This document shows, piece by piece, positions 1,694 through 28,040 of a stretch of 40,000 nt of DNA; position 1 is the stretch's first letter, and each line of letters begins with the position of its first letter. The DNA lies in assembly GCF_042660705.1 (NCBI RefSeq), contig NZ_JBHSUQ010000001.1. One strand, given 5' to 3'. A program made the position numbers and the translations under genes. The stretch comes from Undibacterium arcticum. GTDB lineage: Bacteria > Pseudomonadota > Gammaproteobacteria > Burkholderiales > Burkholderiaceae_D. Below the pieces are notes generated by a model that was not told the DNA's origin, did no database searches, and was given only the letters and a program-made list of their open reading frames with translations.

Positions 1694-2482
1694 ATGATCG
1701 AAATCGAATTCCGTAAAGTTGGCAAGAGCTTCCTCGACCGGCAGACATCTGAACCACGTGCCGCGGTAACCAATGTCAATATTTCCATCCGCAGCGGAGA
1801 GGTGGTCTCGATTATCGGACCATCCGGCTGCGGCAAAAGCACCTTGCTCAACATGGGCGCCGGTCTGTATTTGCCGAGCGCGGGCGAAGTCTATGTGAGT
1901 GGCGAGCTCGTCACCAAGCCAGTGCGCAAAGTCGCGTTCATGCTGCAGAAAGACTTGCTGATGCCATGGCGTACCATCCGCGCCAATGTCTCATTGGGCC
2001 TTGAAATCGATGGCGTCGCACCGCGCGAACGACAACGCGTGGCCGACGAGCTGCTGGCCAAGTGTCACTTGAAAGGCTTTGAAGAGCATTACCCGTACCA
2101 GCTGTCCGGCGGCATGCGGCAGCGCGCGGCGCTGGCGCGCACCTTGGCGGTGGACCCGCAGGTATTGCTGCTGGATGAACCATTCTCCGCACTCGATGCA
2201 CAGACCAAGATGGTGTTGCAGCAAGACCTGGCGAAGATGCTGTATGAAAAACGCAAGACCGCGCTGTTCATCACCCACGATCTGGTCGAAGCGATCGCCT
2301 TGTCCGACCGTCTGCTCGTGATGAGCGAGCGTCCCGGCACCATCATCGAAGAAATCGTGGTCGATCTGCCGTATCGCGACAACCCACTGGAGCGCCGCAA
2401 GCTGCCGGAAATCGGGCCCTTGCAGGGGCGCCTGATGGAACTGCTGAAAGTGGGCAAGGAAGAAAGCGCCGAGCTGCATTAA
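1694..2482 (+). CDS. ABC transporter ATP-binding protein (NitT/TauT nitrate/sulfonate/bicarbonate-type)
   Basis: Walker A GPSGCGKST, signature LSGGMRQR, Walker B LLLDEPFSALD, H-loop ITHD. Followed by a matching binding protein and permease. Confidence 0.9.
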   Translation: MIEIEFRKVGKSFLDRQTSEPRAAVTNVNISIRSGEVVSIIGPSGCGKSTLLNMGAGLYLPSAGEVYVSGELVTKPVRKVAFMLQKDLLMPWRTIRANVSLGLEIDGVAPRERQRVADELLAKCHLKGFEEHYPYQLSGGMRQRAALARTLAVDPQVLLLDEPFSALDAQTKMVLQQDLAKMLYEKRKTALFITHDLVEAIALSDRLLVMSERPGTIIEEIVVDLPYRDNPLERRKLPEIGPLQGRLMELLKVGKEESAELH

Positions 2483-2554
2483 GGCGGCGCAGCCGTCGCA
2501 TACCCAATCAAAGCGCATCCAAATGCGTATTTAAGAAACTAACCAGGAGTGAAC

Positions 2555-3544
2555 ATGAGCATGAATAAACCTCTCGCATCTCTCTGCTGCACGTTGGCAC
2601 TGGCGGCAGCAGCAGTGGCGCCTCTCGCGCATGCCGCACCGGAGGAAATAACTTACCTGCTGCCGGCGCCGCCGAATACCCCCGCATTTGCGCCTTGGAT
2701 GATCGCGCAGCAAAAAGGCTATTACGCGGACGAAAACCTGAAGATCAATTTCGTCGCTGCCAAGGGCGGCGTCGATGTGGCAAAACAGATTGGCGCCGGC
2801 AATGCTTTGATCGGCGGTGCAATCGGCGACACGCCGATCATCGTGCGTGCCAACGGCGTGCCGGTGAAGGCGATTGCGGTGCTGGGCGCGGGCTCGCTGA
2901 CCATGGTCGGCGTGCACCAGAATGAAGGCATCAAATCCTTGCAGGATTTGAAGGGCAAGACGGTCACCGTGATGTCGTATACCGACACCACCTATTACGC
3001 TTTGCTGGGCAACCTGCGCGGCATCGGCCTGAGCAAGACCGATGTATCGATCCAGGCCGCCGGTCCGTCAGGCGTCTGGCAAGTGTTTGCCGGCGGCAAA
3101 GCGTCCGGGTTTGCCGGTGTGCCGGACTGGATTGTCAGCGCCACCGATGCCGGCGCCAAGGTCGACATCATCGAGAGCAATGGCTTTAAGAGCATGGCGC
3201 AGGCGATTCTCGCTTCCGACGACACCATTCAACACAAGCCCGAGCTGCTCAAGCGCCTAGTGCGCGCCACCCTGCGCGGCATGGAAGACATCATGAAGGA
3301 CCCGAAAGCCGCAGCTGCAAGTTATGTCGAGGCCGTGCCTTCGTATAAAGGCAAGGAAGCGAGCATCGAACAAATTTTTAATCTGTATCGCAAGCATGTA
3401 TATGCGAACCAGAAGCCGCTAGGCCAGATCGATGCGGCGCGCATGGAGAACGTGCAGAAATTTTATGTCAGCGAAGGCATCGTCAGCAAAGCCTCGCCGG
3501 TCAAAGATCTGTACACCAATCAATTCGTCGGGACAGATCGATAA
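2555..3544 (+). CDS. ABC transporter periplasmic substrate-binding protein (NMT1/SsuA/TauA-like)
   Basis: Signal peptide ...ALAAAAVAPLAHA-AP. Length and context fit NitT/TauT-family binding proteins. AGGAG (2545-2549) sits 5 nt before the ATG at 2555; the ORF track starts at GTG 2549. Confidence 0.85.
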   Translation: MSMNKPLASLCCTLALAAAAVAPLAHAAPEEITYLLPAPPNTPAFAPWMIAQQKGYYADENLKINFVAAKGGVDVAKQIGAGNALIGGAIGDTPIIVRANGVPVKAIAVLGAGSLTMVGVHQNEGIKSLQDLKGKTVTVMSYTDTTYYALLGNLRGIGLSKTDVSIQAAGPSGVWQVFAGGKASGFAGVPDWIVSATDAGAKVDIIESNGFKSMAQAILASDDTIQHKPELLKRLVRATLRGMEDIMKDPKAAAASYVEAVPSYKGKEASIEQIFNLYRKHVYANQKPLGQIDAARMENVQKFYVSEGIVSKASPVKDLYTNQFVGTDR

Positions 3545-4383
3545 TGGAAACCGCAACTACAGCAAACAATGTGGTCATGCCAGCACCAGCAAAACGCGGT
3601 CCTTCGTTTAATGACAAGGCCAAGACTGTCACCGGCAGCTTGCTGCTGCTGGCGCTGTTCCTGGCGCTGTGGGAATGGGGCCCGGGCTGGCTCGGCATGC
3701 CGGAATTTATTCTGCCCCGCTTTAGCAGGGTGGTGCAAGAAGCCGGCGTGATGTGGAGCAACAGCAACCTGCTCGGCCATTTCGGCATTACCGCGTTGGA
3801 AGTAGTGGTCGGCTTTCTGCTCGGTTCGCTGCTCGGCTTGGCGGTCGGCGTTGCGCTCGGCCTATCGCCGCGCGCCGAAGCAATGCTGTCGCCTTACATC
3901 CTGGCGCTGCAGATTGCGCCGAAAGTCGCCTTCGCGCCATTGTTCGTGATGTGGCTCGGCTACACCATCTATCCGAAGATCATCGTCGCGATCCTGATCG
4001 TGTTCTTCCCGGTAATGATCAATGTATTGTCCGCGATCCGCACGGTGGACCCGGACATGGTCAACCTGGTGCGCACCTTGAATGCGAGCCGCTGGCAGAT
4101 CTTCCATCTGGTCGAATTCCGTTCCGCGATGCCGGCGCTGTTCTCTGGTTTGCGCATTGCCTCGACACTGGCGGTGATCGGCGTCACGGTCGGCGAACTG
4201 GTCGGCGGCAACCAGGGCCTCGGCTTCCTGCTGGTCGACGGCGAAGGCCAAGGCAATACCGCGGCGGTGTTTGTCGCGATCTGCGCCTTGACCGTGACTG
4301 GCATCGTCACATACGGCGCCGTGGTCTGGGCCGAACGCCGCGTTCTGCACTACCTGCCCAAAGCGACCACTACCACCAAATAA
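3544..4383 (+). CDS. ABC transporter permease (SsuC/TauC-like, BPD_transp_1)
   Basis: Multi-pass hydrophobic protein. TAATG overlap with the binding-protein gene. Typical EAA-loop region ...ASRWQIFHLVEFRSAMPALFSGLRIA... Confidence 0.9.
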   Translation: METATTANNVVMPAPAKRGPSFNDKAKTVTGSLLLLALFLALWEWGPGWLGMPEFILPRFSRVVQEAGVMWSNSNLLGHFGITALEVVVGFLLGSLLGLAVGVALGLSPRAEAMLSPYILALQIAPKVAFAPLFVMWLGYTIYPKIIVAILIVFFPVMINVLSAIRTVDPDMVNLVRTLNASRWQIFHLVEFRSAMPALFSGLRIASTLAVIGVTVGELVGGNQGLGFLLVDGEGQGNTAAVFVAICALTVTGIVTYGAVVWAERRVLHYLPKATTTTK

Positions 4384-13245: not shown

Positions 13246-14406
13246 ATGTCTTCTCTGAAAATCGGCATTGTCGGCGCCGGTATTGGCGGGCTCACTGCAG
13301 CGATCGCCTTGCATCGCGCTGGCCATGATGTGGTCGTGTTCGAACAGTCGAAACAATTCCTGCGGGTTGGTGCCGACATAAATCTGACCCCGAATGCGGT
13401 GCGCGCACTGGACGGACTGGGCATCGGCGATGCCGTGCGCCACACTGCCGCGCGCCCCACGCACCGTATTAGCCGCACTTGGGACACCGGCGATGAAACC
13501 TCGCGGCTTGAGATGGGCGACAGCGCCGAGCAAAAATACGGCGCGCCGCAACTGACCATCCACCGCGCCGATTTGCTGGCCGCACTGGCCGCCGTGTTCC
13601 CGGCGGAGCGCGTCTTGTTCGCCAAGCGCGCTGAAGAAGTCAAGCAGGATGCGGATGGCATTACGCTGACGTTCACAGACGGCAGTACCTACCTGGTCGA
13701 TGCATTGATCGGCGCCGATGGCATCCATTCCGCGGTACGCACCGCGATGTTCGGCAGGGAAAATCCACGCTTCACCGGCGTGGTCGCGTTCCGCGCGGTG
13801 ATACCGGCCGAACGTGTAGCCCAGGTGCCGAACATTCAGGCGTTCACCAAATGGTGGGGCCCTAATCTGCAAAGTCAGATCGTCACTTTCCCGCTTAACC
13901 GCGGCAAGGATATTTTTATCTTCGCCACCACCGCGCAGGAAAGTTGGCATCTGGAATCGTGGACTACGCAGGGCAGCGTGCAGGAATTGCGCGACAGCTA
14001 CGCCGGTTTCCACCCCGACGCGCGGGCTCTTCTCGATGCCTGCGACGAAGTGTTGAAGACGGCGCTGTACGAACGCGATCCGCTCCCGCATTGGTCGCAT
14101 GACCGCATGGTGTTGCTGGGCGATGCCTGCCACCCGATGATGCCCTTCATGGCGCAAGGCGCGGGTATGTCGATCGAGGACGCGGTCGTTCTTGCGCGTG
14201 AGATCGCAGGGATTACTCAAGTTGCCGATATGGATACCGCATTCCAGCGTTACGAATCGTTGCGCCTGGAGCGCGCCAGCAAGATTCAGATCGGTTCGCG
14301 CGGCAACAACTGGTTGCGCGAAGGCGGCAATGCCGACTGGGTGTATGGCTACGATGCATGGACAGTGAAGGCGGAATCGGCCGCGCCTGATGCCCAATGC
14401 GATTGA
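13246..14406 (+). CDS. FAD-dependent aromatic monooxygenase (salicylate hydroxylase / 3-hydroxybenzoate 6-hydroxylase / NicC-like class A)
   Basis: GAGIGGLTAA dinucleotide fold, DG motif (ADGIHSAVR), GDACHPMMPFMAQGAGMSIEDA. Confidence 0.9.
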   Translation: MSSLKIGIVGAGIGGLTAAIALHRAGHDVVVFEQSKQFLRVGADINLTPNAVRALDGLGIGDAVRHTAARPTHRISRTWDTGDETSRLEMGDSAEQKYGAPQLTIHRADLLAALAAVFPAERVLFAKRAEEVKQDADGITLTFTDGSTYLVDALIGADGIHSAVRTAMFGRENPRFTGVVAFRAVIPAERVAQVPNIQAFTKWWGPNLQSQIVTFPLNRGKDIFIFATTAQESWHLESWTTQGSVQELRDSYAGFHPDARALLDACDEVLKTALYERDPLPHWSHDRMVLLGDACHPMMPFMAQGAGMSIEDAVVLAREIAGITQVADMDTAFQRYESLRLERASKIQIGSRGNNWLREGGNADWVYGYDAWTVKAESAAPDAQCD

Positions 14407-14463
14407 ATTGATGACTTGGTACCCGGCGCAAGCGCATCCGCGCACGCCACAGAAACGGAGGGA

Positions 14464-14691
14464 ATGATGCAAGAACTTTATTTGAATTCGCACCAGGCGC
14501 GCCGCCGCCTGCCGACCGCCTACGAGGATCTGCTGGGCGATTCGATCGAACGCTCGTTTGCGTCCGGCATTCATGATCTGGCGGCACTGGTCGAACACCT
14601 GAACCGCAGCGGGCCGAACTGCCCTGGCAGCGACGTATGGACCGAGCAAAACTATCAGACGGAAATGGCGCGTCTGGCCGCCGAATGCTAA
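14464..14691 (+). CDS. small conserved-looking hypothetical protein (75 aa)
   Basis: GGAGGG RBS before ATG 14464. Core-like codon usage. Lies between the monooxygenase and the Rieske oxygenase. No motif recognised. Confidence 0.5.
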   Translation: MMQELYLNSHQARRRLPTAYEDLLGDSIERSFASGIHDLAALVEHLNRSGPNCPGSDVWTEQNYQTEMARLAAEC

Positions 14692-14706
14692 TCAAAGAAA
14701 GGTCAA

Positions 14707-15735
14707 GTGATGAGAACTCAAGCAAACGATCCCGTTGATGCCGCACTGTCCATCGGCCTGAAGGATCTGTGGTATCCAATTTGCCCGTCCGAATTTGTCG
14801 CTGAACGCCCGGTGTCGCTGCGCCGTCTCGGCCGCAAGTTCGTGTTTTGGCGCGAAGCGTCCGGCGTGCTGCACGCGCTGGAAGACCATTGTCCGCATCG
14901 CGGCGCGCCACTCTCGCTCGGCATTGCGCTGGGCGACCGGATCGCCTGCGGCTACCACGGCGTGCAGGTGCGCGCCGACGGCGTGGTGATGAGCGTGCCG
15001 GGCAGCCCCGGCTGCAAGCTGGAAGGCGCCAAGGCGACTCGTTCCTTCCACGTGCGAGAAGCGGCCGGCGCAATCTTCCTGTACAACGCCAGCGGCGAGA
15101 TCGCCGAACCGCCGCCGCTGAACCTGCCGCCCGAACTGACCGGCGACGAGTATTCGAACTTCCTCTGCTACACCGAATGGAACGGCGATTACCGCTACGT
15201 GCTTGACAATGTGATGGACCCGATGCACGGCACCTTCCTGCACAAGCAGTCGCATTCGATGGCGGAAGGCGAATCCACGGCGGCATTCCGCGTGCGCGAT
15301 ACCGACACCGGCTTCGTGTTCGAGAAGGAAGGCCAGCGCGGCGTCAACTTCGACTGGACCGAATGGGCCGATACCGGCCTGCATTGGATGCGCCTGGAAA
15401 TTCCATATCCGAAAACGGGCGGGCCCGGCGGTAATTTCATCATCATCGGCAGCTACACGCCGATCTCGGACAACGTGTCGACCGCATTCCACTGGCGCGT
15501 GCGCAAGGTCAGCGGCTGGCAGCGCGACACCTGGCGCTTCCTGTATAAGAACCGCCTCGAGGAACGGCACTGGAAAGTGCTGGAACAGGACCGCGCGATC
15601 CTGGAAGCGATGGAGCCGGACGCCAATCAGCACGAAATGCTGTACCAGCACGACATGGGCATCGTCCGTCTGCGCCGTCACCTGCGCAGCCTGGCGAAAG
15701 CGCAGCTCGCAGCGGCCGAGGAAAAGGCGGCGTGA
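14707..15735 (+). CDS. Rieske [2Fe-2S] non-heme-iron oxygenase, alpha-only (phthalate/VanA family)
   Basis: Rieske motif CPHRGAPLS-x16-CGYHG. Mononuclear iron region NVMDPMHGTFLH. 342 aa, with no beta subunit, and followed by a PDR-type reductase. Confidence 0.9.
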   Translation: MMRTQANDPVDAALSIGLKDLWYPICPSEFVAERPVSLRRLGRKFVFWREASGVLHALEDHCPHRGAPLSLGIALGDRIACGYHGVQVRADGVVMSVPGSPGCKLEGAKATRSFHVREAAGAIFLYNASGEIAEPPPLNLPPELTGDEYSNFLCYTEWNGDYRYVLDNVMDPMHGTFLHKQSHSMAEGESTAAFRVRDTDTGFVFEKEGQRGVNFDWTEWADTGLHWMRLEIPYPKTGGPGGNFIIIGSYTPISDNVSTAFHWRVRKVSGWQRDTWRFLYKNRLEERHWKVLEQDRAILEAMEPDANQHEMLYQHDMGIVRLRRHLRSLAKAQLAAAEEKAA

Positions 15736-16798: not shown

Positions 16799-16933
16799 GA
16801 CGCTAGTGGATTTTTTAAAACGTTGTTTTATAGGTGAAACGCGTTTGTCTTTATTCACCGCGGCAAGCGAAGGGCGAGCGGGTGAAATGTACACGGCGTG
16901 CGCCGTGCAATTCAATAAAAGGGGGGGAGTTTG

Positions 16934-17997
16934 ATGAAACAGGTACTTTTTGTCATCGCGGCTACAGGCATGACTGCAGGTGCGTTCGCGCAAAGCAACG
17001 TGACGGTCTACGGCAGCATGGACGCCGGCGTTGCATACGTTAACAACGTGGGCGGCAAGTCAGTCACGCGGCTGGACCAGGGCACCATGCAACCGGACCG
17101 GATTGGTTTCCGCGGCACTGAAGATCTGGGCGAGGGTTTGAAAGCCAATTACCAGCTGGAGGCCGGTTTTTCCACCGATACCGGCGCCAGCACCAATGCT
17201 AACCGCCTGTTCAACCGTGCCAGCACTATCGGCCTGTCGGGCAGCTTCGGTGCGGTGACCTTGGGTAACATGCCGGATATCGTATTCGACTATGCAGGCA
17301 AACTGAGCAACGGCTTCCAGCTCACCAATTTCTACCTGTTCCATCCGGGTAATCTGGATACGCTGGCTAATACCTTTCAGTTCAACAACGCCGTCCGCTA
17401 CACCTCGCCCAGTTTCTCCGGACTGACTATGAGCGCGATGTACGGTTTTGGTGAAGTCGCGGGCGACAACAGCAAGGGTCGCAACATCAGCGCGGGCGCC
17501 AACTATGTACAGGGTCCGTTGCGCCTGGTGCTGGCGTACTCGAAGCAAACGATCGCGTAGCGGGCTATGCCGGCACCTTTCTCGGCAGCCTTGGTCTGGG
17601 CAATGGCGCGACCGTATTCAACAGCCTGACGACACTGGCAACAGGCGCCGGCTACACGATCGGCGATGTGCGTCTGAACGGCTTGTACACACAGAACAAG
17701 ATCGAACTGCCGGCATCCAGCTTGACGCAAAAGAATGTCGATCTCGGCGCGAGCTGGCATTACAACCCGGCCAATGCGCTGAACCTCGGCTACACGCATT
17801 CCAAACTGGAAGGCGCGCGCTATAACCAGATCAGCGTGAGCAATGTCTACTCGCTGTCCAAGCGCACCGAAGTCTATGCGCAGGCGGCGTACCAGCGCGC
17901 CGGGGGCACTGCGCACTTTGCGATCCAGAACAACACCGGTGTATCCAGCAGTGACAGCCAATGGGTGACAACGGTAGGCATGCACCACTCGTTCTAG
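16934..17997 (+). pseudogene. Gram-negative trimeric porin (Burkholderia OmpC/Omp38-like), split by a 1-nt frameshift as assembled
   Basis: Signal peptide ...GAFA-QSNVTVYGSMDAG. C-terminal ...VGMHHSF. ORFs 16931-17560 and 17668-17997 join through the open frame ...NDRVAGYAGTFLG... if the A3 run at 17547-17549 is read as A4. Confidence 0.85.
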
Positions 17998-18051: not shown

Positions 18052-18180
18052 ATGTTTGGAAATTTAAAGATCGGCACGCGACTGGCTATCGCTTATGCGG
18101 TATCGGAGAAGGAGACCGCGCGGGCGTCAGAGCGCAGGTTGCTGTTTGTCAAACTGGATAGCCAGAAACTGGCGACATAA
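18052..18180 (+). pseudogene. stub of a methyl-accepting chemotaxis protein gene (only about 17 N-terminal residues look genuine)
   Basis: GGAGG RBS plus ATG. MFGNLKIGTRLAIAYAV is a typical MCP N-terminus, but no transmembrane helix follows and the frame stops after 42 codons. The lower-G+C DNA begins here. Confidence 0.4.
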
Positions 18181-18211
18181 TACTGAATCCTGCCAAACGA
18201 AAGGAGCAGAC

Positions 18212-19013
18212 TTGGAAGAGATTAGCGTTTCCACCTGGGATGAATTTGTCTCCTTAAGCTCGACGCTGGACGGGTGGGCATTCCGGGGACAGCAGGATGC
18301 GCGATGGCCATTGCTGAGCTCGCTGTCGCGTTATCTCGATGCGTTCATTCCGGACAAGTCCACCTGGCGCCTGCGCGAAGAGCGCGCGATTCGCATCTTT
18401 CGCCGCAAGGCGCACAACTATCTGACCGATTCTTCGGTGCTGAGCAACGATTTACGCTGTATTGCATTGATGCAGCACCATGGTGCGCCTACCCGTTTGT
18501 TGGACTTTACGAAATCACCCTTCGTCGCCGTTTTTTTTTGCGCTCGAAAGCGCGGTGACCGATGCCGCGGTCTATGCGCTAAACACACCGAAATTGTGGG
18601 ATGCGACCCCGGCGAAAAATCCAGCCTTAAATCGGGAAACCATCGATCCCAGAAAGGCAGGAAACTTTGAGCGTTATTTCCTGCAGGACGACAATGAAAT
18701 TGTGTGGACTGGCGAACCGACCGAAATGGACAAGCGGCTGGTCGCTCAATCCGGTACGGTTGTCGTACCCGGCATTCTGAATAAATCGCTGGACGAAATC
18801 CTGAGCAAGTATCGTGATAACGATGCCCTGCTTAAAAAAATAGTTTTGCCGCAACACATACGCGAAGAAGCGATGAAAGCGCTCTACCGGATGAATATCA
18901 CCAATGCGACGCTGTTTCCTGATCTGGACGGTCTGGCAAAATCGATTCGCGTGGAGCTGGAAGTCATTTGGCCTGTGCCGGTAGGTGACGCGATGCGGGG
19001 TGACAATGCATAG
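18212..19013 (+). pseudogene. FRG-domain protein, frameshifted in a T9 run as assembled
   Basis: WAFRGQ, LMQHHGAPTRLLDFTKSPFVA, QSGT motifs. AAGGAG RBS 5 nt before TTG 18212. ORFs 18095-18670 and 18480-19013 join at T9 18531-18539 (...PFVAVFFALESAV...). Confidence 0.75.
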
Positions 19014-19102: not shown

Positions 19103-20107
19103 TCAGTCGGCTTCGCGCAACAGTCGCATGCCCACAAGCGTATAACGCGTGTCCGGCGAATTCCAGTTGCGATAGGACGACCGCGCATAGAACGACCATG
19201 TGTGCCATGAGCCGCCACGACGCACGCGCACGGCTCCCGTCGCTGGCCCCTTTGGATCGTCGAGCGGCGAGTTCGCATAATAGTGCTCACCATACCAATC
19301 TGCGGTCCATGCCCATGCATTGCCGTGCATATCATAGAGTCCGAATGCATTCGGCGCAAAGCTGCCGACGGGCGACGTGAATGCAAAACCATCGTGTCCT
19401 GCAAGCGCATAGATTGCCCACTTTTCCCAATTTTTCTGCGCATCGGCATCGAATATATTGGCGGCTTTCAACAGAGATTGCGGATCGTCTCCGGTGTAAT
19501 AGCGCGTTCGGGTACCGGCGCGTGCTGAATATTCCCATTCCGCTTCAGTCGGTAGGCGATAGGTCTTCCCTTCCGTCTCGCTCAGCCATTTGCTCATCGC
19601 TACCGCATCGTTCCAGGTGACGTTCACTACCGGATGATCATCGCCTTGCTGAAATCCGGGATTGCGCCATGAGTATTTCGGGTTACGTCCTTCAAATGCA
19701 TCGCCGCGCACCGATTTGGCCGGGTCATAGTCGGGGTTGTAACCATAGCCACCGGTACCGTCGGTTTCGGATTCAGGCTTGTAGCCTGACGCTTCCAGGA
19801 ATCGTCGGAACTGGCCGACGGTGACATGGTGCTGTCCGAGATAGAACGCACGCGTGATGCGCACCTTGTGTACCGGTGCTTCGTCGTCAAGTTCCAGGAA
19901 ACGCGCTCGCTCGTATTGTGGATAGGACTTGGCGAGGGAATCGGGCGACTCATCACTGCCCATCATGAATTCGCCGGCGGGAACCAACACGAACTTCATG
20001 CCGACCGAGTTCTCGATTTGTGTCGGTAATGTTGCGGCCGGTCCGATTGACCAGGCTGATGAAGCCATCAGCGACGTGAAAAGGAGAAGCGTTGTTCGTA
20101 GCTGCAT
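19103..20107 (-). CDS. secreted formylglycine-generating-enzyme (SUMF1/FGE-sulfatase) domain protein, TagR-like
   Basis: Signal peptide MQLRTTLLLFTSLMASSAWS. Motifs HPVVNVTWNDA, RLPTEAEWEYSARAG, GLYDMHGNAWAWTADWY, RVRRGGSW. Confidence 0.85.
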   Translation of the reverse strand: MQLRTTLLLFTSLMASSAWSIGPAATLPTQIENSVGMKFVLVPAGEFMMGSDESPDSLAKSYPQYERARFLELDDEAPVHKVRITRAFYLGQHHVTVGQFRRFLEASGYKPESETDGTGGYGYNPDYDPAKSVRGDAFEGRNPKYSWRNPGFQQGDDHPVVNVTWNDAVAMSKWLSETEGKTYRLPTEAEWEYSARAGTRTRYYTGDDPQSLLKAANIFDADAQKNWEKWAIYALAGHDGFAFTSPVGSFAPNAFGLYDMHGNAWAWTADWYGEHYYANSPLDDPKGPATGAVRVRRGGSWHTWSFYARSSYRNWNSPDTRYTLVGMRLLREAD

Positions 20108-20429
20108 AGTGCCTCAAAAATGGTGAAGCTGCGCCTCTTAGGCCTCCCGCCAATTGCCGCCAACCGAACGGCCTCCAGCTTGAATTTCCGACCACAGCTT
20201 GTGTTTCCCTTGCGTTCCATGGGACACTTCTTTCAGAGCTAGTATGGCTCTTTTAGTGTGTCCACCAAACGTGGGCAAGATCAAAACGACCCATTAGAGA
20301 CATTCGCATTTCCCGCAAGCGGACGCTCAACGTTCGACATGAGACGGAGACAACGGCGGAACGCCGTCGTCTCTTAGTTCCATGGAGGGGTTAGGCTTCT
20401 TTTTACCTGCTCCATTTTTCATTTCCGAC

Positions 20430-21035
20430 TCAACGTTGATTACACAATATTGATGCGGTCTTTTCGCTACTTTTATTCTGCGAAGCGCATGGATACTGCG
20501 TGTGGACTGTTGATTTGTTATTTTGCTTTTTTGCCGGCCGGTTTGGCCGCCGCTTTTTTTTCGCCTGTTTGAAAACCGGCCCCCACAAAGGATGCTGTTT
20601 TTCACCGGCGTCCAGATCGAAGCTCGGATCAAGCTTCAAGGCTTTGTCGAATTGTTGGCGGCATAGCGTCATGCGTGTGGTCACACAATAACTGAAAGCC
20701 ATGGTTTTTAGTGCCGTCAGCTTCGTGCTCTTGTCAGCCGACCGGCTATCGGCGGGTAAGGAGAGTTTCTGGATCGCGCCGTTGAAATCGCCATTGTCGT
20801 ACAAAGTGAGGCCTTCTTTCAGTGAACTGTTCACTGCGGCCGGAACAACAATAGTTGCCACAGTCGGCGCAGGTGCCACCCTCGGTATCGTCGTCGGAGT
20901 GGAATTGTTGGCAACTGACTTCGGAGCCGGTTCGGCATTGTGGCGCATCTCTGCACAGCCTATCAAAGCGAAACACAGGATGACACATTGAGCAAAACCC
21001 AGGTTTGTCAGATTGGATGGCATGGTTGCTGTCAT
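20430..21035 (-). CDS. lipoprotein, TssQ-like; the C-terminal tail as assembled is probably out of frame, with a likely true stop at 20518
   Basis: Lipobox FALIGC. TPR-like core. Motif ...KTMAFSYCV...C..QFDKALKLDPSF...HPLWGPVF. Reading the T8 run (20554-20561) as 9 gives ...FKQAKKKAAAKPAGKKAK* ending at 20518. The ATG overlaps the reconstructed kinase stop (ATGA). Confidence 0.55.
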   Translation of the reverse strand: MTATMPSNLTNLGFAQCVILCFALIGCAEMRHNAEPAPKSVANNSTPTTIPRVAPAPTVATIVVPAAVNSSLKEGLTLYDNGDFNGAIQKLSLPADSRSADKSTKLTALKTMAFSYCVTTRMTLCRQQFDKALKLDPSFDLDAGEKQHPLWGPVFKQAKKKRRPNRPAKKQNNKSTVHTQYPCASQNKSSEKTASILCNQR

Positions 21036-22636
21036 TGCGATTTGTTGCCGTTGAAATCGTGTTCGAGCGTGGCCGGCTCGTTGTTGCTGACACGAATCTC
21101 TGTGACGTAGTCGGGGAAGGCGGGATTCACGATCCTAACCTTATATTTGCCCTCGGGCAGCGCGAGTTTCTTAATCGGTGGGCTTACTCCCTTTTCGACG
21201 CCGTTTTACATATACAACACCCCATGGCCTGACGCTGAGTTTGACATTGATGGCCTGCGCTGCAGCTTGGGTTGCCACATGCGCCGCGCTGGCAGCAGCG
21301 GTAGTTGTTACTGTACTTGCAACAGTACTTGCCACGGTTTTTTTCTGTCGGCAGTTTGTCTTGGGCTGCTCGCCGTTGCGCTGGTCGTTCCGCTGGCAGG
21401 GATGGTATGCAGATCGTCGGCCGATACCGTCGGTGCATTACTCGTGTTGGTGATCTCTGAAGCGGGAGTTGCTGCAACCAGCGGTGCCGGTGGATGGTCG
21501 ATGATAACTTGCTGATCCCTGCTACCCGGCGCAAATTTTGCAATAGCGACCAGGGTCAGTAGCGCCGCCGCAGCCACCGGCAGGGCGATTTTCCAACGCT
21601 TCCACCAGACCGTAGCGCCGGCAACTTCGACTTTCTTTTCGTCAGTTTCTAGAAGAGCAGAATTGATTAGAGGCGGCGCCGGTGAATAGGAAACCGCACC
21701 GGCCTTGACCCCGAGCAGGATACGAAATTCGGCGATGGTTTTCGGCCTTTGCTCCGGCAAAACTCTGAGACCGACATTGATCGCATCGAGGAAGGATTCG
21801 CTGTAAGCCGGGTAGTTGGCAGTGCTCAGATTTTCTATCGGATCCTTGATCATGCGCGCCACCGAGCTTGGCGGTGCCTTTTTCGCGATCAAGCTGTAAA
21901 TCACTGCGGACAAGGCGTAGATATCGGTCCATGGTCCCTGTGCCATGCTTTCGTCGTCGGCGTATTGCTCAACCGGGGCAAAGCGCGGTTTCAGGATCAC
22001 CGTCAGTGATTGCGGCATACCGCTGATGACTTGGCGCGCAGCGCCAAAATCCAGCAAAACCGGTGCGCCGTTTTTCTGGATCATGATGTTTTCCGGCGAA
22101 ATATCGCGATGCAGAACTTGCGCCTTGTAGAGCAAATCCAGCCCGGACAAAATCGACTGCAGCATTTTCTTTAACCAGGATTCGGTGATCAGCTCGGGTC
22201 GGTGTTCGGCCAGATGTTGCAAGGTTTGACCCTGGTAATACTGCATCGCCATGTAGGCGGTTTTGTTCTCTTCCCAAAAACGATACACCTTGACCAGTGC
22301 CGGATAATCGAATTGTGCCAGCAGGCGCGCCTCGTTGATATAGCTTTTCAGGCCGGTATCGAAAGCTTCCAGATGTTTGGCTGCGCGTACCAGGACGGTG
22401 TTGTGATGGCCGCGCGCGGCCAACGACATTGGCATGTACTCTTTGATGGCGACCGTGCGCTGCAGGCTGTGATCGAAAGCCATATAGACGATGCCGAAAC
22501 CACCTTCGCCAATCACGCCGGTGATTTCAAAATCGGACAGGCGCGTGCCGATGGGCAGGCAATTGGACGAGCCGCTTTTGCCGGGCAGCGGGCGAACTTT
22601 GTCTTCGGGGCTCGTGCTCATATCGTTACTTGGCAT
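21032..22636 (-). CDS. Hanks-type Ser/Thr protein kinase (PpkA-like): kinase domain, one TM helix, low-complexity linker, small PEGA-like periplasmic domain; two frameshifts in the 3' part as assembled
   Basis: GEGGFG, VAIKEY, HRDISPEN, DFGAAR, and TM helix WKIALPVAAAALLTLVAIA in ORF 21308-22636. Correcting the T7 run 21338-21344 and the T4 run 21204-21207 extends it through ...INVKLSVRPWGVVYVNGVEKGVSPPIKKLALPEGKYKVRIVNPAFPDYVTEIRVSNNEPATLEHDFNGNKSQ* to TGA 21032-21034. Confidence 0.8.
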
Positions 22637-23502
22637 TATTGCGCTTTGCTATTGGGAGATTGCGGCATCTGGTCAATCCAGATCGCAAATGCCGTCGTAT
22701 TATCGCGTACTGAAGTCGATTGGCCCTGATTGGCGCGGTGGTCGGCAATCCCTTGCATACGGCTCAGCCAGTCTTGTGCTGAACTCGCTTGCGTCAGCGC
22801 CTGCTCCATTTCGTCTTCAAGAACCCATTCCCACAAACCGTCACTGCAGAGCAGGAACGCATCGCCGGCCGCCAGCTCTTGCATCGTGCTGATGCAAGGG
22901 GTGTAATCGGTTTCGGCACCAATCGCGGCAATCAACACATGTCGATGCGGATGGATGCGCGATTGCTCGGCACCGCAATAACCGGCATCGATATATTGCT
23001 GCACCAAGCTGTGATCCTGACTCATCGCTTGAATTCTTTGCTGCCGGAAAAAATAAATGCGGCTATCGCCCAGATGCGCCCACAGCGCGGCGCCCCGCTG
23101 CGTATCGATCAGCAAGCTGACGACGGTGGTACTCATTTCGCGCAATTGCTGGTCGCTGTCTTGCGCTCGCGCCACGCTCTGGCTGGCGGCGTTCAAATAT
23201 GCGGATAACTTCTCTACGCTGAAAGCGGAATCGGCGGCAAACGCAGTGCTGATCGCCTTGATCGCAACTGCGGCAGCGATTTCACCACCCTTGTGTCCGC
23301 CTGCGCCATCGGCCACCAGAAAGCAATGCAGACCCTCATTGTGCAAACTGTCCAGTGCATCCTGATTACTGTCGCGGCCGCCGATCTGGCACATTTGTGC
23401 GGCATCGATCAGCCAACGCGTTTGCAACGCCCGGGCCATCGACTCACCCGCTACCGCTGCAGTTAAGTCATTTGCCAATGCATTTGCAAATTCGCCGCCC
23501 AT
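22636..23502 (-). CDS. PP2C-family Ser/Thr phosphatase (PppA-like)
   Basis: RDSNQDA, VADGAGGH, GDSR, CSDGL, and a late DN motif. The stop overlaps the kinase start (TAATG at 22634-22638). Confidence 0.85.
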   Translation of the reverse strand: MGGEFANALANDLTAAVAGESMARALQTRWLIDAAQMCQIGGRDSNQDALDSLHNEGLHCFLVADGAGGHKGGEIAAAVAIKAISTAFAADSAFSVEKLSAYLNAASQSVARAQDSDQQLREMSTTVVSLLIDTQRGAALWAHLGDSRIYFFRQQRIQAMSQDHSLVQQYIDAGYCGAEQSRIHPHRHVLIAAIGAETDYTPCISTMQELAAGDAFLLCSDGLWEWVLEDEMEQALTQASSAQDWLSRMQGIADHRANQGQSTSVRDNTTAFAIWIDQMPQSPNSKAQ

Positions 23503-23514
23503 GATTATCTTTCC

Positions 23515-24291
23515 TCAGCCTTGACCACCAGTTCGGACTTCAAAGAGTCGAACGGCGATTGCTCTTCGCAACGCGCGATTTCTTTCGTAGGCGTTCAGGA
23601 AAGCGTTGCCTATAGCCGGTTGTTCGTGATGTATGCCTTCCTTGCGGATTTGCCGGAACCTCACACCGTAGGCATCCCACATCTGGGCCTTGTGCCTGGA
23701 TGGGAACCATTTATCCATGCCAATTGGCTCCGGCACATGATCGCTGATATGGCGTGGATGAAAGCGATCCATCGCATCGCGCACACCGGCGCTAAAACCG
23801 GCAAGCATCGCTTTTTGATGCGCATACAAATCGCCGTAAGCCTCTTGCATCGCTTCCACCGGCTCCATGAAACCCGGCATTTTTTTGCGCAGCATCTGCA
23901 ATATGATGGTGTCGCTATCTTGTAAAAATTTCAATGGATTGTTGTTGCGCTTAACGACCACCGTCACATCGGCCTGCACTGCGCGCTTGACCATGGAACG
24001 GCTGGACAGCAAATTGTGCGTGCCGCGTATCGAGACCGATAGCAACTTGCCCAACATCTCCATCAATTCCGGCGTGAGTTTGGAACCAATCCCCCGTCCG
24101 GCCGGATCTTGCGCAATTCCCGCACCGCGCATAAATGCATCAAGCAATTCCTGATGAGCAGGGTCTTGACTGGCGATGTTGTTAACGTCGGCTCTCGGGT
24201 TCGGTTCGAACGAATGTTGATCTGACATCGGCGAGGCTCCTGATTGACGGTCATTACTTTGATGTGAGACGGTTTTGAGAGAGGGAATCAT
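23515..24291 (-). CDS. TagH/Fha1 C-terminal-domain-like protein that lacks the FHA domain
   Basis: ELLDAFMRGAGI, ...VVVKRNNNPLKF..., EAMQEAYGDLYAHQKAM, RFHPRHI, W..Y, and FLNAYE follow, from memory, the conserved pattern of the C-terminal half of T6SS FHA proteins. No FHA signature is present. The best start may be ATG 24228 (AGGAG 8 nt upstream). Confidence 0.55.
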   Translation of the reverse strand: MIPSLKTVSHQSNDRQSGASPMSDQHSFEPNPRADVNNIASQDPAHQELLDAFMRGAGIAQDPAGRGIGSKLTPELMEMLGKLLSVSIRGTHNLLSSRSMVKRAVQADVTVVVKRNNNPLKFLQDSDTIILQMLRKKMPGFMEPVEAMQEAYGDLYAHQKAMLAGFSAGVRDAMDRFHPRHISDHVPEPIGMDKWFPSRHKAQMWDAYGVRFRQIRKEGIHHEQPAIGNAFLNAYERNRALRRAIAVRLFEVRTGGQG

Positions 24292-24403
24292 CCTGACACA
24301 CTAGCTTAAATCATGCCATGCTGCAACATTCCGTGGGGCAAGCACTACAGTCCGACAGTTTTGAGTTATTTAGCAGGCTGCTGAAATGCTCCCAAAGCGG
24401 GCT

Positions 24404-24548
24404 AATGTCGTTCAGTTAAGGCATAACTACCAATTAGTGTCATTCCCGCGGAGGCGGGAATCCAGTGTCGTACGCACGCAAGCCACTGGATCCCCGCCTG
24501 TGCGGGGGCGACAAATTGGGGGGAATTGGCCCTTAACTGAACGGCATT
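24404..24548. repeat. MITE-like 145-bp element with 18-bp terminal inverted repeats and two internal hairpins
   Basis: AATGTCGTTCAGTTAAGG (24404-24421) against CCTTAACTGAACGGCATT (24531-24548), 17 of 18 complementary. Internal ATTCCCGC-GGAG-GCGGGAAT (24442-24461) and CCCCGC-CTGT-GCGGGG (24492-24507). Translations give the junk peptides ...IPASAGMT / SFPRRRES... typical of such repeats. Confidence 0.6.
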
Positions 24549-24769
24549 ACCCCATGCGGGCGGATTGCCGTGTTCGCAATGTTTGGTTTCACCCGGCACG
24601 TTCGCATCTTGAGTTTTTCGCCCATGGCGGGTCTGTTTTTAGCGATTCGGGGTTGATTTCTCCGCATTGCTCACTCCTCACGCCGCCTGTAGCCGTATTT
24701 GCCCCCAGAGAGCGCATTAGATCAAACCCAACAGAGGGCGGAAGTGGTCGAGCAATTCGGTGATACGAC

Positions 24770-25555
24770 TCATTTCTGCACAAAATGCACCGTCAGTGTG
24801 CCTAGGTCGCCATATTGAATGGCGATGTCTTCTCCTGCCGGCAGGTCAAAGCTCCCGGCATACGACCCTGTGATCACGGCTTGACCGGTTTGCAACCCCC
24901 GGCCTTTGCTGCGCAAAAACTCCGCCAGCCAATACAGTGGCGCGCGTGGATCGGCACTCGGATGGTGGCCCTCAAGTTGGGTTGCCTCGCCAGTTGCATG
25001 GGTGATCGTTATCGTCATGTCGCTGGCGGCGCTTGCTGGTCCGGCATCCACCTGCCGGCCGATGAACAGGCCCTGATTGAGCAAGCTATCCGCCAGATTT
25101 TCAGCAAAACTGGCGTCGGCAGCATCGCTGTAACGGCTGTCGATCAGCTCGAGCGCGAGGTGGGTACGCGCTATCGCGGCATCGACCTCGGCCGGCGTGT
25201 AGGGTAGGTCGCGCACGGGCAGGTCACGACCGAGGATGAAGGCGAGTTCCGGCTCCACCCGCGCCTGACCGGCGCGGACCCACACCGCGCATGGTGCGCT
25301 AGTGTGGACGGTGCTGGCATAGATAGGCGCCAAGACCAAGCGCCCGGCAGCGGGCAAGCCGCACTTCCATGCAGCGATGCCATCGCCGAGTTGCTCGCTG
25401 ACGGCGGCTTGTATGGCCAATGCAGCGTCAAGATTGGATGGCCGACAGGACTCCGGCAGGCGAGGCCCTTGCTCGCCCGACCTGCGGCGCACCACCAGGA
25501 TGGTTGCGGCAGTTGAAGCGACATGGTCGGGTTGATGATTCAGACGGTATCCCAT
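24770..25555 (-). CDS. 2-keto-4-pentenoate hydratase / FAH-family hydratase (MhpD-like)
   Basis: 261 aa with core-like high G+C. Overall pattern (...AIQAAV..., EPELAFILG, ...ALELIDSR..., VITGSY...) matches the MhpD/XylJ hydratase family. Confidence 0.7.
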   Translation of the reverse strand: MGYRLNHQPDHVASTAATILVVRRRSGEQGPRLPESCRPSNLDAALAIQAAVSEQLGDGIAAWKCGLPAAGRLVLAPIYASTVHTSAPCAVWVRAGQARVEPELAFILGRDLPVRDLPYTPAEVDAAIARTHLALELIDSRYSDAADASFAENLADSLLNQGLFIGRQVDAGPASAASDMTITITHATGEATQLEGHHPSADPRAPLYWLAEFLRSKGRGLQTGQAVITGSYAGSFDLPAGEDIAIQYGDLGTLTVHFVQK

Positions 25556-26372
25556 GTCTTTCTCGTTCTGATATAGGAGTCGTCATTGTAGAAAGGAGCA
25601 AACACTTCGCTGAAGAATGGAATGTCCTCACTCCCGGTTTGCATTGCTGTGTATTGAAGAGAGGACAGTAACTCAACCCAATAGCGGATGACTTGGAGTA
25701 CATATAGTTGGCGAAAAGGGGCAACGGCAGTCTGCATTCCGGTTCTACGGCTTGCATCTTCAACGTCTGTGATTTCGTCGCCGGTCTCAGACGTATGTCT
25801 GACCATGGCGTGCGGGGCGAGCATCGCGGCGATGGCGGTAGCGTTGCCATCGATGGCTTCCTTTTTGTTCCTCGATACGCGTGTCGCGTATAGCGGTATG
25901 TCTACTTGCGTGAACCATGACGCAATGGGATCACTTTGCCGTTTCGCGCCAACAATCAGATCAATGTTGGAATAGCGATCACCCTGCGCAAACTCTGCCA
26001 GGATTCTTAGAATGGCTTGATGGATGGGGTCATCGAGTTTGCGCAAAAAAAACTGCATGGATATCGACCGCTTCGAAGCTACCACCAGTGACTTCTCGTA
26101 GATGACACCAATCTTGTGTCCGATTTCGTTTTTTTCATGTAGTTGAAATCCGGGAACTGGCCGTTGTGATCAATGAAATGATCGAGCATAAGGCAGAGCT
26201 TTCCGATTCGCTCAAGGCCAGTAGACAGGCTTGTGAATGCTTGGAAATAAACACCCTTGGCTGCGTAGTTGGCGTTTCTAATTTGCGTAGCGCCTGAGCC
26301 AAGCATCTCCTTTGTGAATTGTGCCTCCTTGATCAGAGCATTGAAGGTCTCAGTAAACATGTACGTCGCCAT
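25540..26372 (-). pseudogene. hypothetical protein (about 275 aa once joined), frameshifted in a T7 run as assembled
   Basis: ORFs 26079-26372 and 25540-26085 join at T7 26129-26135 to read ...DFNYMKKNEIGHKIGVIYEKSLVVASKR... Low G+C. No family recognised; KNEIGH faintly resembles a HEPN-type xNxxxH motif. Confidence 0.5.
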
Positions 26373-26471
26373 TGGAAGGTTGAGGGGGCTTACATAGAAC
26401 TGAGCGGCTGGCCGCTCGGAACAAAAGCAAAAACTGACGGCGCGGCCCGGCCAGTCCGATCAACCACCATG

Positions 26472-27197
26472 TCAGAAGACATTCTTCGTAAGCCACTCGG
26501 CTCCTTGGATGAACTCTTCAACTTGCTCCTTGGTCGGTTCGGCGTCCTTCTTGTGCGAACATAGATTACGAAGGTCGGCAAGGAACGATATCTTACGCCA
26601 CGCGGGTATGTCGATAACCGAAGCAGATTTGAGAGGGTCATTCAAGTCCGCATTGGTCGGGTTCTTCTTACCAACAGTGACGCCATGACTTGATGCTACT
26701 TTCTGTAGGTGTCCCTCGATTACAACGCCCATGAGCGCTCCCGCGGCCCGAAGTCTCACCTTAGCCAATTGCCGCGCTATCACGATCTCGCTGTCCTGCA
26801 ACTCGGCGTACAGCTCGCCTTCAATGTTTGCCACAACGGAATCAATTCGCTCAGCGATTGCCTTAAACAGCGTGAGTTGATTAAAGAAGCACCTCAACGC
26901 TTGGTTTCTGCTGTCGAAATTTGGGTAACCTGATGGTATGACGTTTTTGAAAAAGTCCTGAATAACGTACGAGCCGTACCCGAGAGATTTACGTTTCGGA
27001 TCGATCTCATAGTAATTTCTGAACTCGGCGTATCGATCAGGCGCAAGCGTTGCAACGGCTTTTAATGCCTTCGTATACCAACGTTGGTAGTCGTATTGAA
27101 ACTGTTTATCCTGGTTATTCTGGAAGGCTTCACCTAGCACCGCGCCCTCTGCGTAAATGGCATCGATTTCTTTGCGGATTAGAGCTCGCTTCGACAT
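26472..27197 (-). CDS. HEPN-domain-like protein (putative RNase/abortive-infection type)
   Basis: Canonical Rx4H motif with the conserved Asn near the C-terminus (FLADLRNLCSHKKDAEPTKEQVEEFI). The rest is predicted all-helical by eye. Low G+C. Confidence 0.5.
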   Translation of the reverse strand: MSKRALIRKEIDAIYAEGAVLGEAFQNNQDKQFQYDYQRWYTKALKAVATLAPDRYAEFRNYYEIDPKRKSLGYGSYVIQDFFKNVIPSGYPNFDSRNQALRCFFNQLTLFKAIAERIDSVVANIEGELYAELQDSEIVIARQLAKVRLRAAGALMGVVIEGHLQKVASSHGVTVGKKNPTNADLNDPLKSASVIDIPAWRKISFLADLRNLCSHKKDAEPTKEQVEEFIQGAEWLTKNVF

Positions 27198-27963: not shown

Positions 27964-28040
27964 TGGTCGGGACGGTGTGATTCGAACACACGACCCCTTG
28001 CACCCCATGCAAGTACGCTACCAGGCTGCGCTACGCCCCG
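27964..28040 (-). tRNA. tRNA-Pro (anticodon GGG)
   Basis: The reverse complement reads CGGGGCGTAGCGCAGCCTGGTAGCGTACTTGCATGGGGTGCAAGGGGTCGTGTGTTCGAATCACACCGTCCCGACCA. It has a 7-bp acceptor stem, D and T arms (GTTCGAATC), anticodon loop AT-GGG-GT, and an encoded CCA. Confidence 0.95.

Follow-up and report, generated by a model that had tools for sequence, protein, structure and literature searches.

A stand-alone four-gene relative of the type VI secretion threonine-phosphorylation module in Undibacterium arcticum and its family

The 40-kb stretch of Undibacterium arcticum DNA analyzed here (the window) contains, on its minus strand, a cassette of four genes encoding a TagH-like protein, a PP2C phosphatase, a membrane Hanks kinase, and a TssQ-family lipoprotein. 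The cassette is real and represents an apparently undescribed orphan variant of the threonine-phosphorylation module of type VI secretion systems (T6SS); our literature searches returned no description of an orphan TagH/kinase/PP2C/TssQ cassette. A fifth gene in the same orientation, encoding a protein of the FGE-sulfatase family, lies downstream. The five genes are as follows.

23505..24228, minus strand: TagH-like protein without an FHA domain, consisting of T6SS_FHA_C only, about 240 residues after correction (open reading frame as read, 23515-24291).
22636..23502, minus strand: PP2C-type Ser/Thr phosphatase (PppA-like), with a PP2C_2 match.
21032..22636, minus strand: membrane Hanks Ser/Thr kinase, about 534 residues as reconstructed (open reading frame as read, 21308-22636).
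20518..21035, minus strand: TssQ-family lipoprotein, about 170 residues after correction (open reading frame as read, 20430-21035).
19103..20107, minus strand: secreted FGE-sulfatase-family protein (PF03781), judged to lie outside the cassette.

All five open reading frames (ORFs) are present on the minus strand at the positions given in a preliminary description of this locus, and the domain assignments made there, including those of the TagH C-terminal domain and TssQ, stand, with all five proteins exceeding hidden Markov model (HMM) cut-offs in searches against Pfam and NCBIfam profiles. The tight coupling of the genes is likewise as described: 12 nucleotides (nt) separate the TagH ORF as read (23515) from the PP2C gene (23502), a TAATG overlap at 22636 joins the PP2C gene to the start of the kinase gene, and an ATGA overlap at 21032-21035 joins the kinase and TssQ genes. 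What does need correcting is the start of the TagH gene, which is probably at 24228, together with the stops of the TagH (23505) and TssQ (20518) genes.

The placement of the cassette in accessory DNA of lower G+C content is borne out by a value of 0.544 against 0.585 in the flanks, about four points lower, with accessory genes around it. By Pfam, the other large ORFs of the window comprise catabolic genes, a porin, a tricarboxylic acid cycle cluster, and a few accessory genes. As the preliminary description had also stated, no T6SS core gene lies in the 40-kb window: tblastn with 14 core proteins from an annotated Caballeronia T6SS cluster gave no match, while the same queries scored strongly, at 60-2256 bits, with three control loci (L088-L090). 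Rfam gives no RNA element for the cassette or its surroundings.

The TagH-like protein corresponds to only the C-terminal part of canonical TagH. The ORF at 23515-24291 matches T6SS_FHA_C (PF20232) at 1e-45 over profile positions 12-179 of 180, and it reaches 138.5 bits with the TagH model TIGR03354 (cut-off 120.25). This second alignment is confined to positions 204-418 of the profile, which indicates that the FHA domain is absent. Consistent with this, PF00498 (FHA) finds no match in the protein, and an FHA profile built from its relatives gives no match either within the gene or upstream of it. The probable start, the second ATG at 24228, is preceded by an AGGAG Shine-Dalgarno-like sequence and agrees with the starts of two relatives (P0002 and P0003). 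Upstream of it, the translated stretch MIPSLKTVSH resembles the N terminus of FHA-bearing relatives; we treat this resemblance as chance rather than as an FHA relic, because no such relic was found upstream of the FHA-less tagH genes of any other relative. Among TagH-like relatives, the motifs RNNNPLKF and QMLRKKMPGF show little or no variation, and NNPLKF is common to the U. arcticum T6SS_FHA_C domain and both aligned TagH proteins from T6SS clusters. We make no claim for the conserved threonine of an LTPE motif as an equivalent of the Fha1 phosphorylation site; it is not conserved in these two T6SS-embedded proteins. Neither sequence nor fold searches yielded a relative of the T6SS_FHA_C domain with a solved structure.

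Both enzymes of the cassette retain their catalytic motifs. The phosphatase matches PP2C_2 at 2.8e-17 and a Stp1-type model at 1.6e-48, the latter below the cut-off of that model, and the metal-binding motifs DGAGGH, SDGLW, and DN can be read in its sequence. The kinase ORF as read matches Pkinase at 1.9e-34, with intact VAIK, HRD, and DFG. Its architecture comprises a cytoplasmic kinase domain, a single transmembrane (TM) helix, a Ser/Thr/Ala-rich periplasmic linker, and, in the reconstructed C terminus, a PEGA domain (PF08308, 35.1 bits, cut-off 20.8). The periplasmic domain of PpkA is a vWA domain, for which the U. arcticum kinase gives no match.

The fourth gene encodes a lipoprotein of the TssQ family (NF038027), scoring 108.9 bits against a cut-off of 65, with relatives from Collimonas arenae and metagenomes at 74-117 bits. 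It has an L-I-G-C lipobox, the cysteine of which is kept in 10 relatives. The name TssQ requires some care, as in the literature it denotes an unrelated membrane-complex protein of Bacteroidota. The NCBIfam TssQ described here is the fourth gene of 66 related loci (see below) and lacks linkage to T6SS genes in all of these as well as in the window, whereas the homolog in Burkholderia arboris is T6SS-linked. C. arenae Ter10 carries an intact tssQ gene of 157 codons (L094, 13839-14312), and in Ter282 the corresponding region is split into two ORFs of 58 and 99 residues (L095, 13839-14311). Ter282 is reported to have no T6SS, and its split could be either a sequencing indel or the onset of decay.

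Three of the four cassette genes contain frameshifts in the sequence as assembled. The kinase, whose interruption was implied by the preliminary description, stops at 21308 as read, and tblastn with the kinases of relatives realigns 21223-21038 in the original frame, leaving about 45 codons in another frame between two indels, both in A-runs: an A7 run near 21338 that is one base short and a GTAAAAC sequence near 21206 with one base extra. The C terminus of the TagH-like protein shifts frame after NAYE, at an A-run indel near 23585, and that of TssQ shifts in an A8 run at about 20553-20560; the expected continuations are seen in an 88%-identical metagenomic TagH (P0002) and in the TssQ proteins of relatives, and give the corrected stops listed above. 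All four cassette indels (4/4) thus fall in A-runs, and they include both insertions and deletions. A second U. arcticum assembly has other indels in the same tagH gene, namely an extra Phe codon and a shift after AHQK. This suggests an assembly with poor polishing, whose pseudogene calls are not to be trusted. Given the A-run locations and the different indels of the second assembly, we take the cassette frameshifts to be, most likely, homopolymer assembly errors and the U. arcticum cassette to be probably intact. The porin (16931-17997) and FRG-domain (18095-19013) genes next door are also split, so that at least six frameshifts fall within 8 kb (porin, FRG gene, TssQ, kinase twice, and TagH), with A-runs at the four sites inspected.

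The cassette is not peculiar to U. arcticum. A scan of one genome per species recovered 253 relatives, of which the best 80, soil and water bacteria that all belong to Oxalobacteraceae and allied Burkholderiales, were examined together with seven metagenomic loci (87 related loci in total), each to 10 kb on either side of the gene. The order TagH-PP2C-kinase-TssQ is found in about 75 of these, in Undibacterium, Collimonas, Massilia, Telluria, Janthinobacterium, Noviherbaspirillum, Herbaspirillum, Glaciimonas, Pseudoduganella, and Paucimonas. When all flanking ORFs are clustered, only TagH, PP2C, kinase, and TssQ emerge as conserved (83, 75, 74, and 66 loci, respectively); the next real neighbor, a DEAD-box helicase, occurs in 20 of the 87 loci, and there is no fifth conserved gene. 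Within this span, tblastn finds T6SS core genes in none of the 87 loci, with positive controls as above. The stand-alone character ascribed to the cassette from the window therefore extends to its relatives, and homologous cassettes are not, as might have been the case, always found inside T6SS clusters; nor is the U. arcticum locus the product of a local rearrangement. The window fits the four-gene orphan pattern of Oxalobacteraceae that these loci define in our analysis. Over 58 loci, the median difference in G+C content between cassette and flanks is 0.0005, so that the cassette looks native in most genomes. Within Oxalobacteraceae, the module appears to have been passed on, and moved, as one unit of four genes.

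The genus Collimonas bears most directly on the relation of the cassette to secretion. T6SS clusters have been reported in C. fungivorans and C. pratensis and none in C. arenae (Song et al. 2015, PMC4690342). In C. arenae, the cassette occurs in strains Ter10 and Ter282, where TagH is FHA-bearing and 399 residues long, and it is also found in every other Collimonas genome or metagenome-assembled genome recovered. Its presence in a species reported to lack a T6SS favors a T6SS-independent role. The Ter10 TagH is 75% identical to a second protein labeled as C. arenae (P0139), with both domains conserved and a divergent linker.

A protein search shows the TagH-like family to be large, with FHA-less forms of 205-240 residues and FHA-bearing forms of 350-450 residues. 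In a neighbor-joining tree of the C-terminal domain (loci L008-L087), which is crude, FHA-less proteins fall into at least four to five separate clades with FHA-bearing forms between them: one of U. arcticum, U. terreum, and TJN25, in which the U. arcticum protein groups with the FHA-less U. terreum/TJN25 proteins; one of Pseudoduganella; one of Noviherbaspirillum and Herbaspirillum; one of N. massiliense; and several groups of Massilia and Telluria. The simplest reading of this topology is that the FHA domain was lost repeatedly, in separate clades that include the one of U. arcticum. The kinase, phosphatase, and TssQ are kept in clades in which the orphan TagH has lost its FHA domain.

Several other arrangements were seen. 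A sister clade consists of solitary FHA-less TagH C-domain proteins of 220 residues with no kinase, PP2C, or TssQ nearby (L013, 10064-10726; L014, 3008-3670; L015, 1568-2230; L091-L093), and where genes were called, in the three metagenomic loci L091-L093, an unannotated protein of 312-364 residues precedes the solitary gene. The Undibacterium metagenome-assembled genome 339R carries both a solitary gene of this type and a full FHA-bearing cassette (L034). In Undibacterium sp. Ren11W (L058, 9524-15593), one PP2C-kinase-TssQ set lies between two FHA-bearing TagH genes, the second of which (14406-15593) diverges close to the base of the orphan clade.

The gene downstream of tssQ had been proposed as a fifth, TagR-like member of the cassette, a proposal that the wider comparison does not sustain. 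Its product matches FGE-sulfatase (PF03781) at 1.3e-59 over positions 4-255 of 255 and has a signal-peptide-like N terminus, and it reaches no NCBIfam equivalog cut-off (PvdO, 141.9 against 500). In the 87 related loci, no homolog of the FGE protein comes closer than 9 kb to the cassette. Its orthologs, at 75-85% identity, occur in Herminiimonas, Noviherbaspirillum, Herbaspirillum, Cupriavidus, and Sulfuricella, where they are solitary and unlinked to the cassette; the Herminiimonas ortholog has unrelated neighbors, and in Noviherbaspirillum massiliense the ortholog (0.72-0.74 Mb) and the cassette (2.31-2.33 Mb) are 1.6 Mb apart on the same contig. The conservation of the FGE protein is far above that of the cassette proteins, and a tblastn search of plasmids gave generic matches only, at 40% identity or less and with no T6SS link. 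With the TssQ stop corrected to 20518, about 410 nt separate it from the start of the FGE gene. This gene is a bystander and not part of the cassette, and its product appears to be a widespread periplasmic enzyme of the FGE fold, always solitary from Undibacterium to Cupriavidus and Sulfuricella (for example, at L097, 6001-7020, and L098, 6001-6987).

Several further elements surround the cassette. The FRG-domain gene reported as a neighbor is confirmed (18095-19013, plus strand), and both halves of the frameshift-split gene match the PADLOC candidate defense family PDC-S15 (1.4e-27 and 1.4e-19). On the other side, at 25540-27197 on the minus strand, lie three low-G+C ORFs with no match in Pfam, NCBIfam, or PADLOC, two of which (25540-26085 and 26079-26372) overlap and could be one frame-shifted gene. 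The third (26472-27197) ends in a HEPN-like R-x4-H motif, LRNLCSH; the HEPN gene described earlier is thus supported by this motif but not by any HMM match. A tRNA-Pro(GGG) gene at 27964-28040 (minus strand) has its 3' end toward the low-G+C accessory stretch. We considered and set aside a genomic island bounded by this tRNA gene, as the search turned up neither an integrase nor a direct repeat of the tRNA end. Upstream of tagH, a possible miniature inverted-repeat transposable element at 24399-24553 has 23-nt inverted arms, 91% complementary and 109 nt apart, that enclose a G+C-rich palindrome of the gcgggaatcc repetitive extragenic palindromic type.

The reading that we favor, with somewhat more confidence than doubt, is that the cassette is an orphan offshoot of a Burkholderia-type T6SS phosphorylation module: a four-gene switch whose output probably extends beyond T6SS assembly, present in U. 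arcticum in a copy that is probably intact. The domain content, the intact catalytic motifs, the conserved lipobox, the single TM helix with a PEGA domain beyond it, and the tight operon are all directly observed. By homology, the TssQ lipoprotein and the periplasmic PEGA domain of the kinase would sense an envelope cue; the kinase would autophosphorylate and then, on the precedent of Fha1/TagH, phosphorylate the cytoplasmic T6SS_FHA_C protein; and the PP2C phosphatase would reset the switch. The helical T6SS_FHA_C domain could then relay the state of the switch to a partner encoded away from the cassette. That the output would not be restricted to T6SS assembly is suggested by the lack of T6SS linkage combined with persistence in genomes reported to be T6SS-free. 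A few points weigh against this reading. The search for T6SS genes in U. arcticum covers the 40-kb window and that in relatives 10 kb on each side, and a distal T6SS lacking its own tagH and kinase is possible; the absence of a T6SS from C. arenae comes from one published SecReT6 analysis (PMC4690342); the mechanistic steps are each argued from homology; and the NNPLKF motif shared with T6SS-embedded TagH proteins means that the partner could still be a T6SS component. If the frameshifts were real, moreover, the U. arcticum copy would be a decaying set of pseudogenes.

The distal T6SS just mentioned is the core of an alternative that we regard as rather unlikely, in which the cassette is a remote controller of a T6SS encoded at another site of the U. 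arcticum chromosome and acts in trans, through the TagH-like protein, on the membrane complex or baseplate. All parts of the cassette are homologous to T6SS accessory proteins, two of them so named by NCBIfam (TagH and TssQ); a homologous TssQ/TagH/PEGA-kinase set lies inside a complete Burkholderia T6SS cluster; NNPLKF is common to the two aligned T6SS-embedded proteins; and some Collimonas species are reported to have T6SSs (PMC4690342). Against it, the related loci show T6SS linkage in 0/87; all Collimonas recovered carry the cassette, although T6SS presence is reported to vary within the genus and the system to be missing from C. arenae; and there has been repeated loss of the FHA domain, the part that in the systems studied so far binds phospho-PpkA or phospho-TssL (T6SS reviews). 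A five-gene pathway in the style of P. aeruginosa TagQR-PpkA-PppA-Fha1, with the FGE protein as a TagR-like periplasmic activator and TssQ as a TagQ-like anchor, seems to us quite improbable. The FGE gene is adjacent, co-oriented, and apparently secreted as a PF03781 product, the fold reported for TagR in the preliminary description, and in a review of T6SS accessory genes TagR appears as a periplasmic protein of COG1262. Set against this are the absence of an FGE homolog from the vicinity of all 87 loci, its orthologs in unrelated contexts, the gap of about 410 nt, the absence of TagS/TagT, and a kinase sensor domain that is PEGA.

That the cassette is instead a pseudogenized leftover of a lost T6SS, with real frameshifts in three of the four genes, is very improbable. 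Four indels do break the kinase, TagH, and TssQ frames, the G+C content is below that of the flanks, with accessory genes around, and TssQ is split in C. arenae Ter282 as well; yet the indels all lie in A-runs and go in both directions, the unrelated porin and FRG genes are also frame-shifted, the other U. arcticum assembly differs in its tagH indels, the 88%-identical homolog P0002 is intact, and apart from the indels the invariant motifs of the family are kept. Least credible in our view is an anti-phage kinase system within a defense island. PADLOC does match the kinase to mad6 (7.8e-46) and PD-T4-6 and the phosphatase to PDC-M21C, next to the FRG/PDC-S15 candidate defense gene and the gene with the HEPN-like motif, but these matches span only generic kinase and PP2C domains, and TagH and TssQ have none. 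In other genomes, moreover, the cassette has housekeeping flanks and host-like G+C content, and it occurs in many species of several genera, clustering largely by genus, unlike the usual patchy defense islands. An output in sensing envelope damage or phage is speculation, the supporting context for it being confined to the U. arcticum genome.

The stand-alone reading, which the preliminary description had offered for the U. arcticum locus, is supported and here generalized to a whole bacterial family, and it has consequences for how such genes are annotated. TagH/Fha, PpkA, and PppA count as accessory genes of the T6SS, and names such as "T6SS-associated TagH" and "TssQ" carry this assumption into genome annotation. 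Because the cassette occurs family-wide without ever lying beside T6SS genes, and also in genomes reported to be T6SS-free, such annotations are not evidence of a T6SS. The T6SS_FHA_C domain can probably be studied for a function separable from the secretion machine. Collimonas, with species reported to have and to lack a T6SS and all carrying the cassette, offers a natural test bed for finding the targets of the switch and the signals sensed by TssQ and PEGA. A broader proposal, which we put forward tentatively, is that T6SS_FHA_C together with a PEGA kinase, PP2C, and TssQ could constitute a phospho-switch that senses the envelope and in Oxalobacteraceae mainly controls a process other than the T6SS, the T6SS versions being one specialized use of a more general signaling module; if true, the repeated loss of FHA would mark a rewiring in which the TagH C-terminal domain serves as substrate or effector only.

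Comparison with known systems places the cassette closer to Burkholderia than to Pseudomonas. In a collection of plasmids and chromids, TssQ homologs occur only in Burkholderia and Paraburkholderia, where they adjoin the best TagH matches. In B. arboris (NZ_CP101525), TssQ-TagH is divergent from tssK-L-M, tagF, a PEGA kinase, tssA-B-C, hcp, tssE-H, and vgrG, with identities to the window proteins of 40% for TssQ, 37.5% for TagH, and 46.5% for the kinase domain. It is the closest T6SS-embedded relative found, and it is probably of the candidate "T6SS-6" type, listed with TagH/TagE in a 2026 accessory-gene review. The B. arboris cluster shares with the cassette the adjoining TssQ and TagH genes and a Hanks kinase that ends in a PEGA domain; it differs in that its genes lie inside a T6SS cluster, its TagH is FHA-bearing, it includes TagF, and the 49 kb examined yielded no PP2C, whereas the U. 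arcticum cassette has no T6SS genes nearby, no TagF, a PP2C, and a single four-gene operon. Recent reviews of T6SS regulation and of accessory genes place TagH, PpkA, and PppA only within T6SS loci, and TssQ is absent from both.

With the P. aeruginosa H1-T6SS threonine-phosphorylation pathway (TagQRST-PpkA-PppA-Fha1), onto which the cassette had been mapped at the outset, it shares a logic of membrane Hanks kinase, PP2C, T6SS_FHA_C-containing target, and outer-membrane lipoprotein. The mapping itself is not supported: the U. arcticum kinase has a PEGA domain in place of the vWA domain of PpkA, the target lacks FHA, the FGE protein is not a conserved partner, being absent from the 87 loci, the genes lie outside a T6SS cluster, and no TagS/TagT ABC pair is found in the cassette or in the related loci inspected. 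ABC genes occur in the window solely at 1694-4383, as part of an NMT1/BPD_transp uptake system 16 kb from the cassette. The cassette is homologous to the module of the Burkholderia TssQ-TagH-PEGA-kinase T6SS type and not to the P. aeruginosa TagQRST/vWA-PpkA pathway.

More distant parallels are the RtkS-PpkA-PppA-Fha system of Serratia marcescens and the PpkA-TssL-Fha system of Agrobacterium, which have a similar trio of kinase, phosphatase, and FHA protein in post-translational control of assembly. In these T6SS-locus-encoded systems, FHA binds phosphothreonine on Fha or TssL, whereas the U. arcticum cassette has neither an FHA domain nor a linked TssL. TagH of V. cholerae (VCA0112/VasC) is encoded in a T6SS cluster, bears an FHA domain, and lacks kinase and phosphatase partners, all of which set it apart from the protein described here. 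It has, however, a reported role beyond the T6SS, repression of hlyA, with no cognate kinase, and is a precedent for T6SS-independent activity of a TagH protein.

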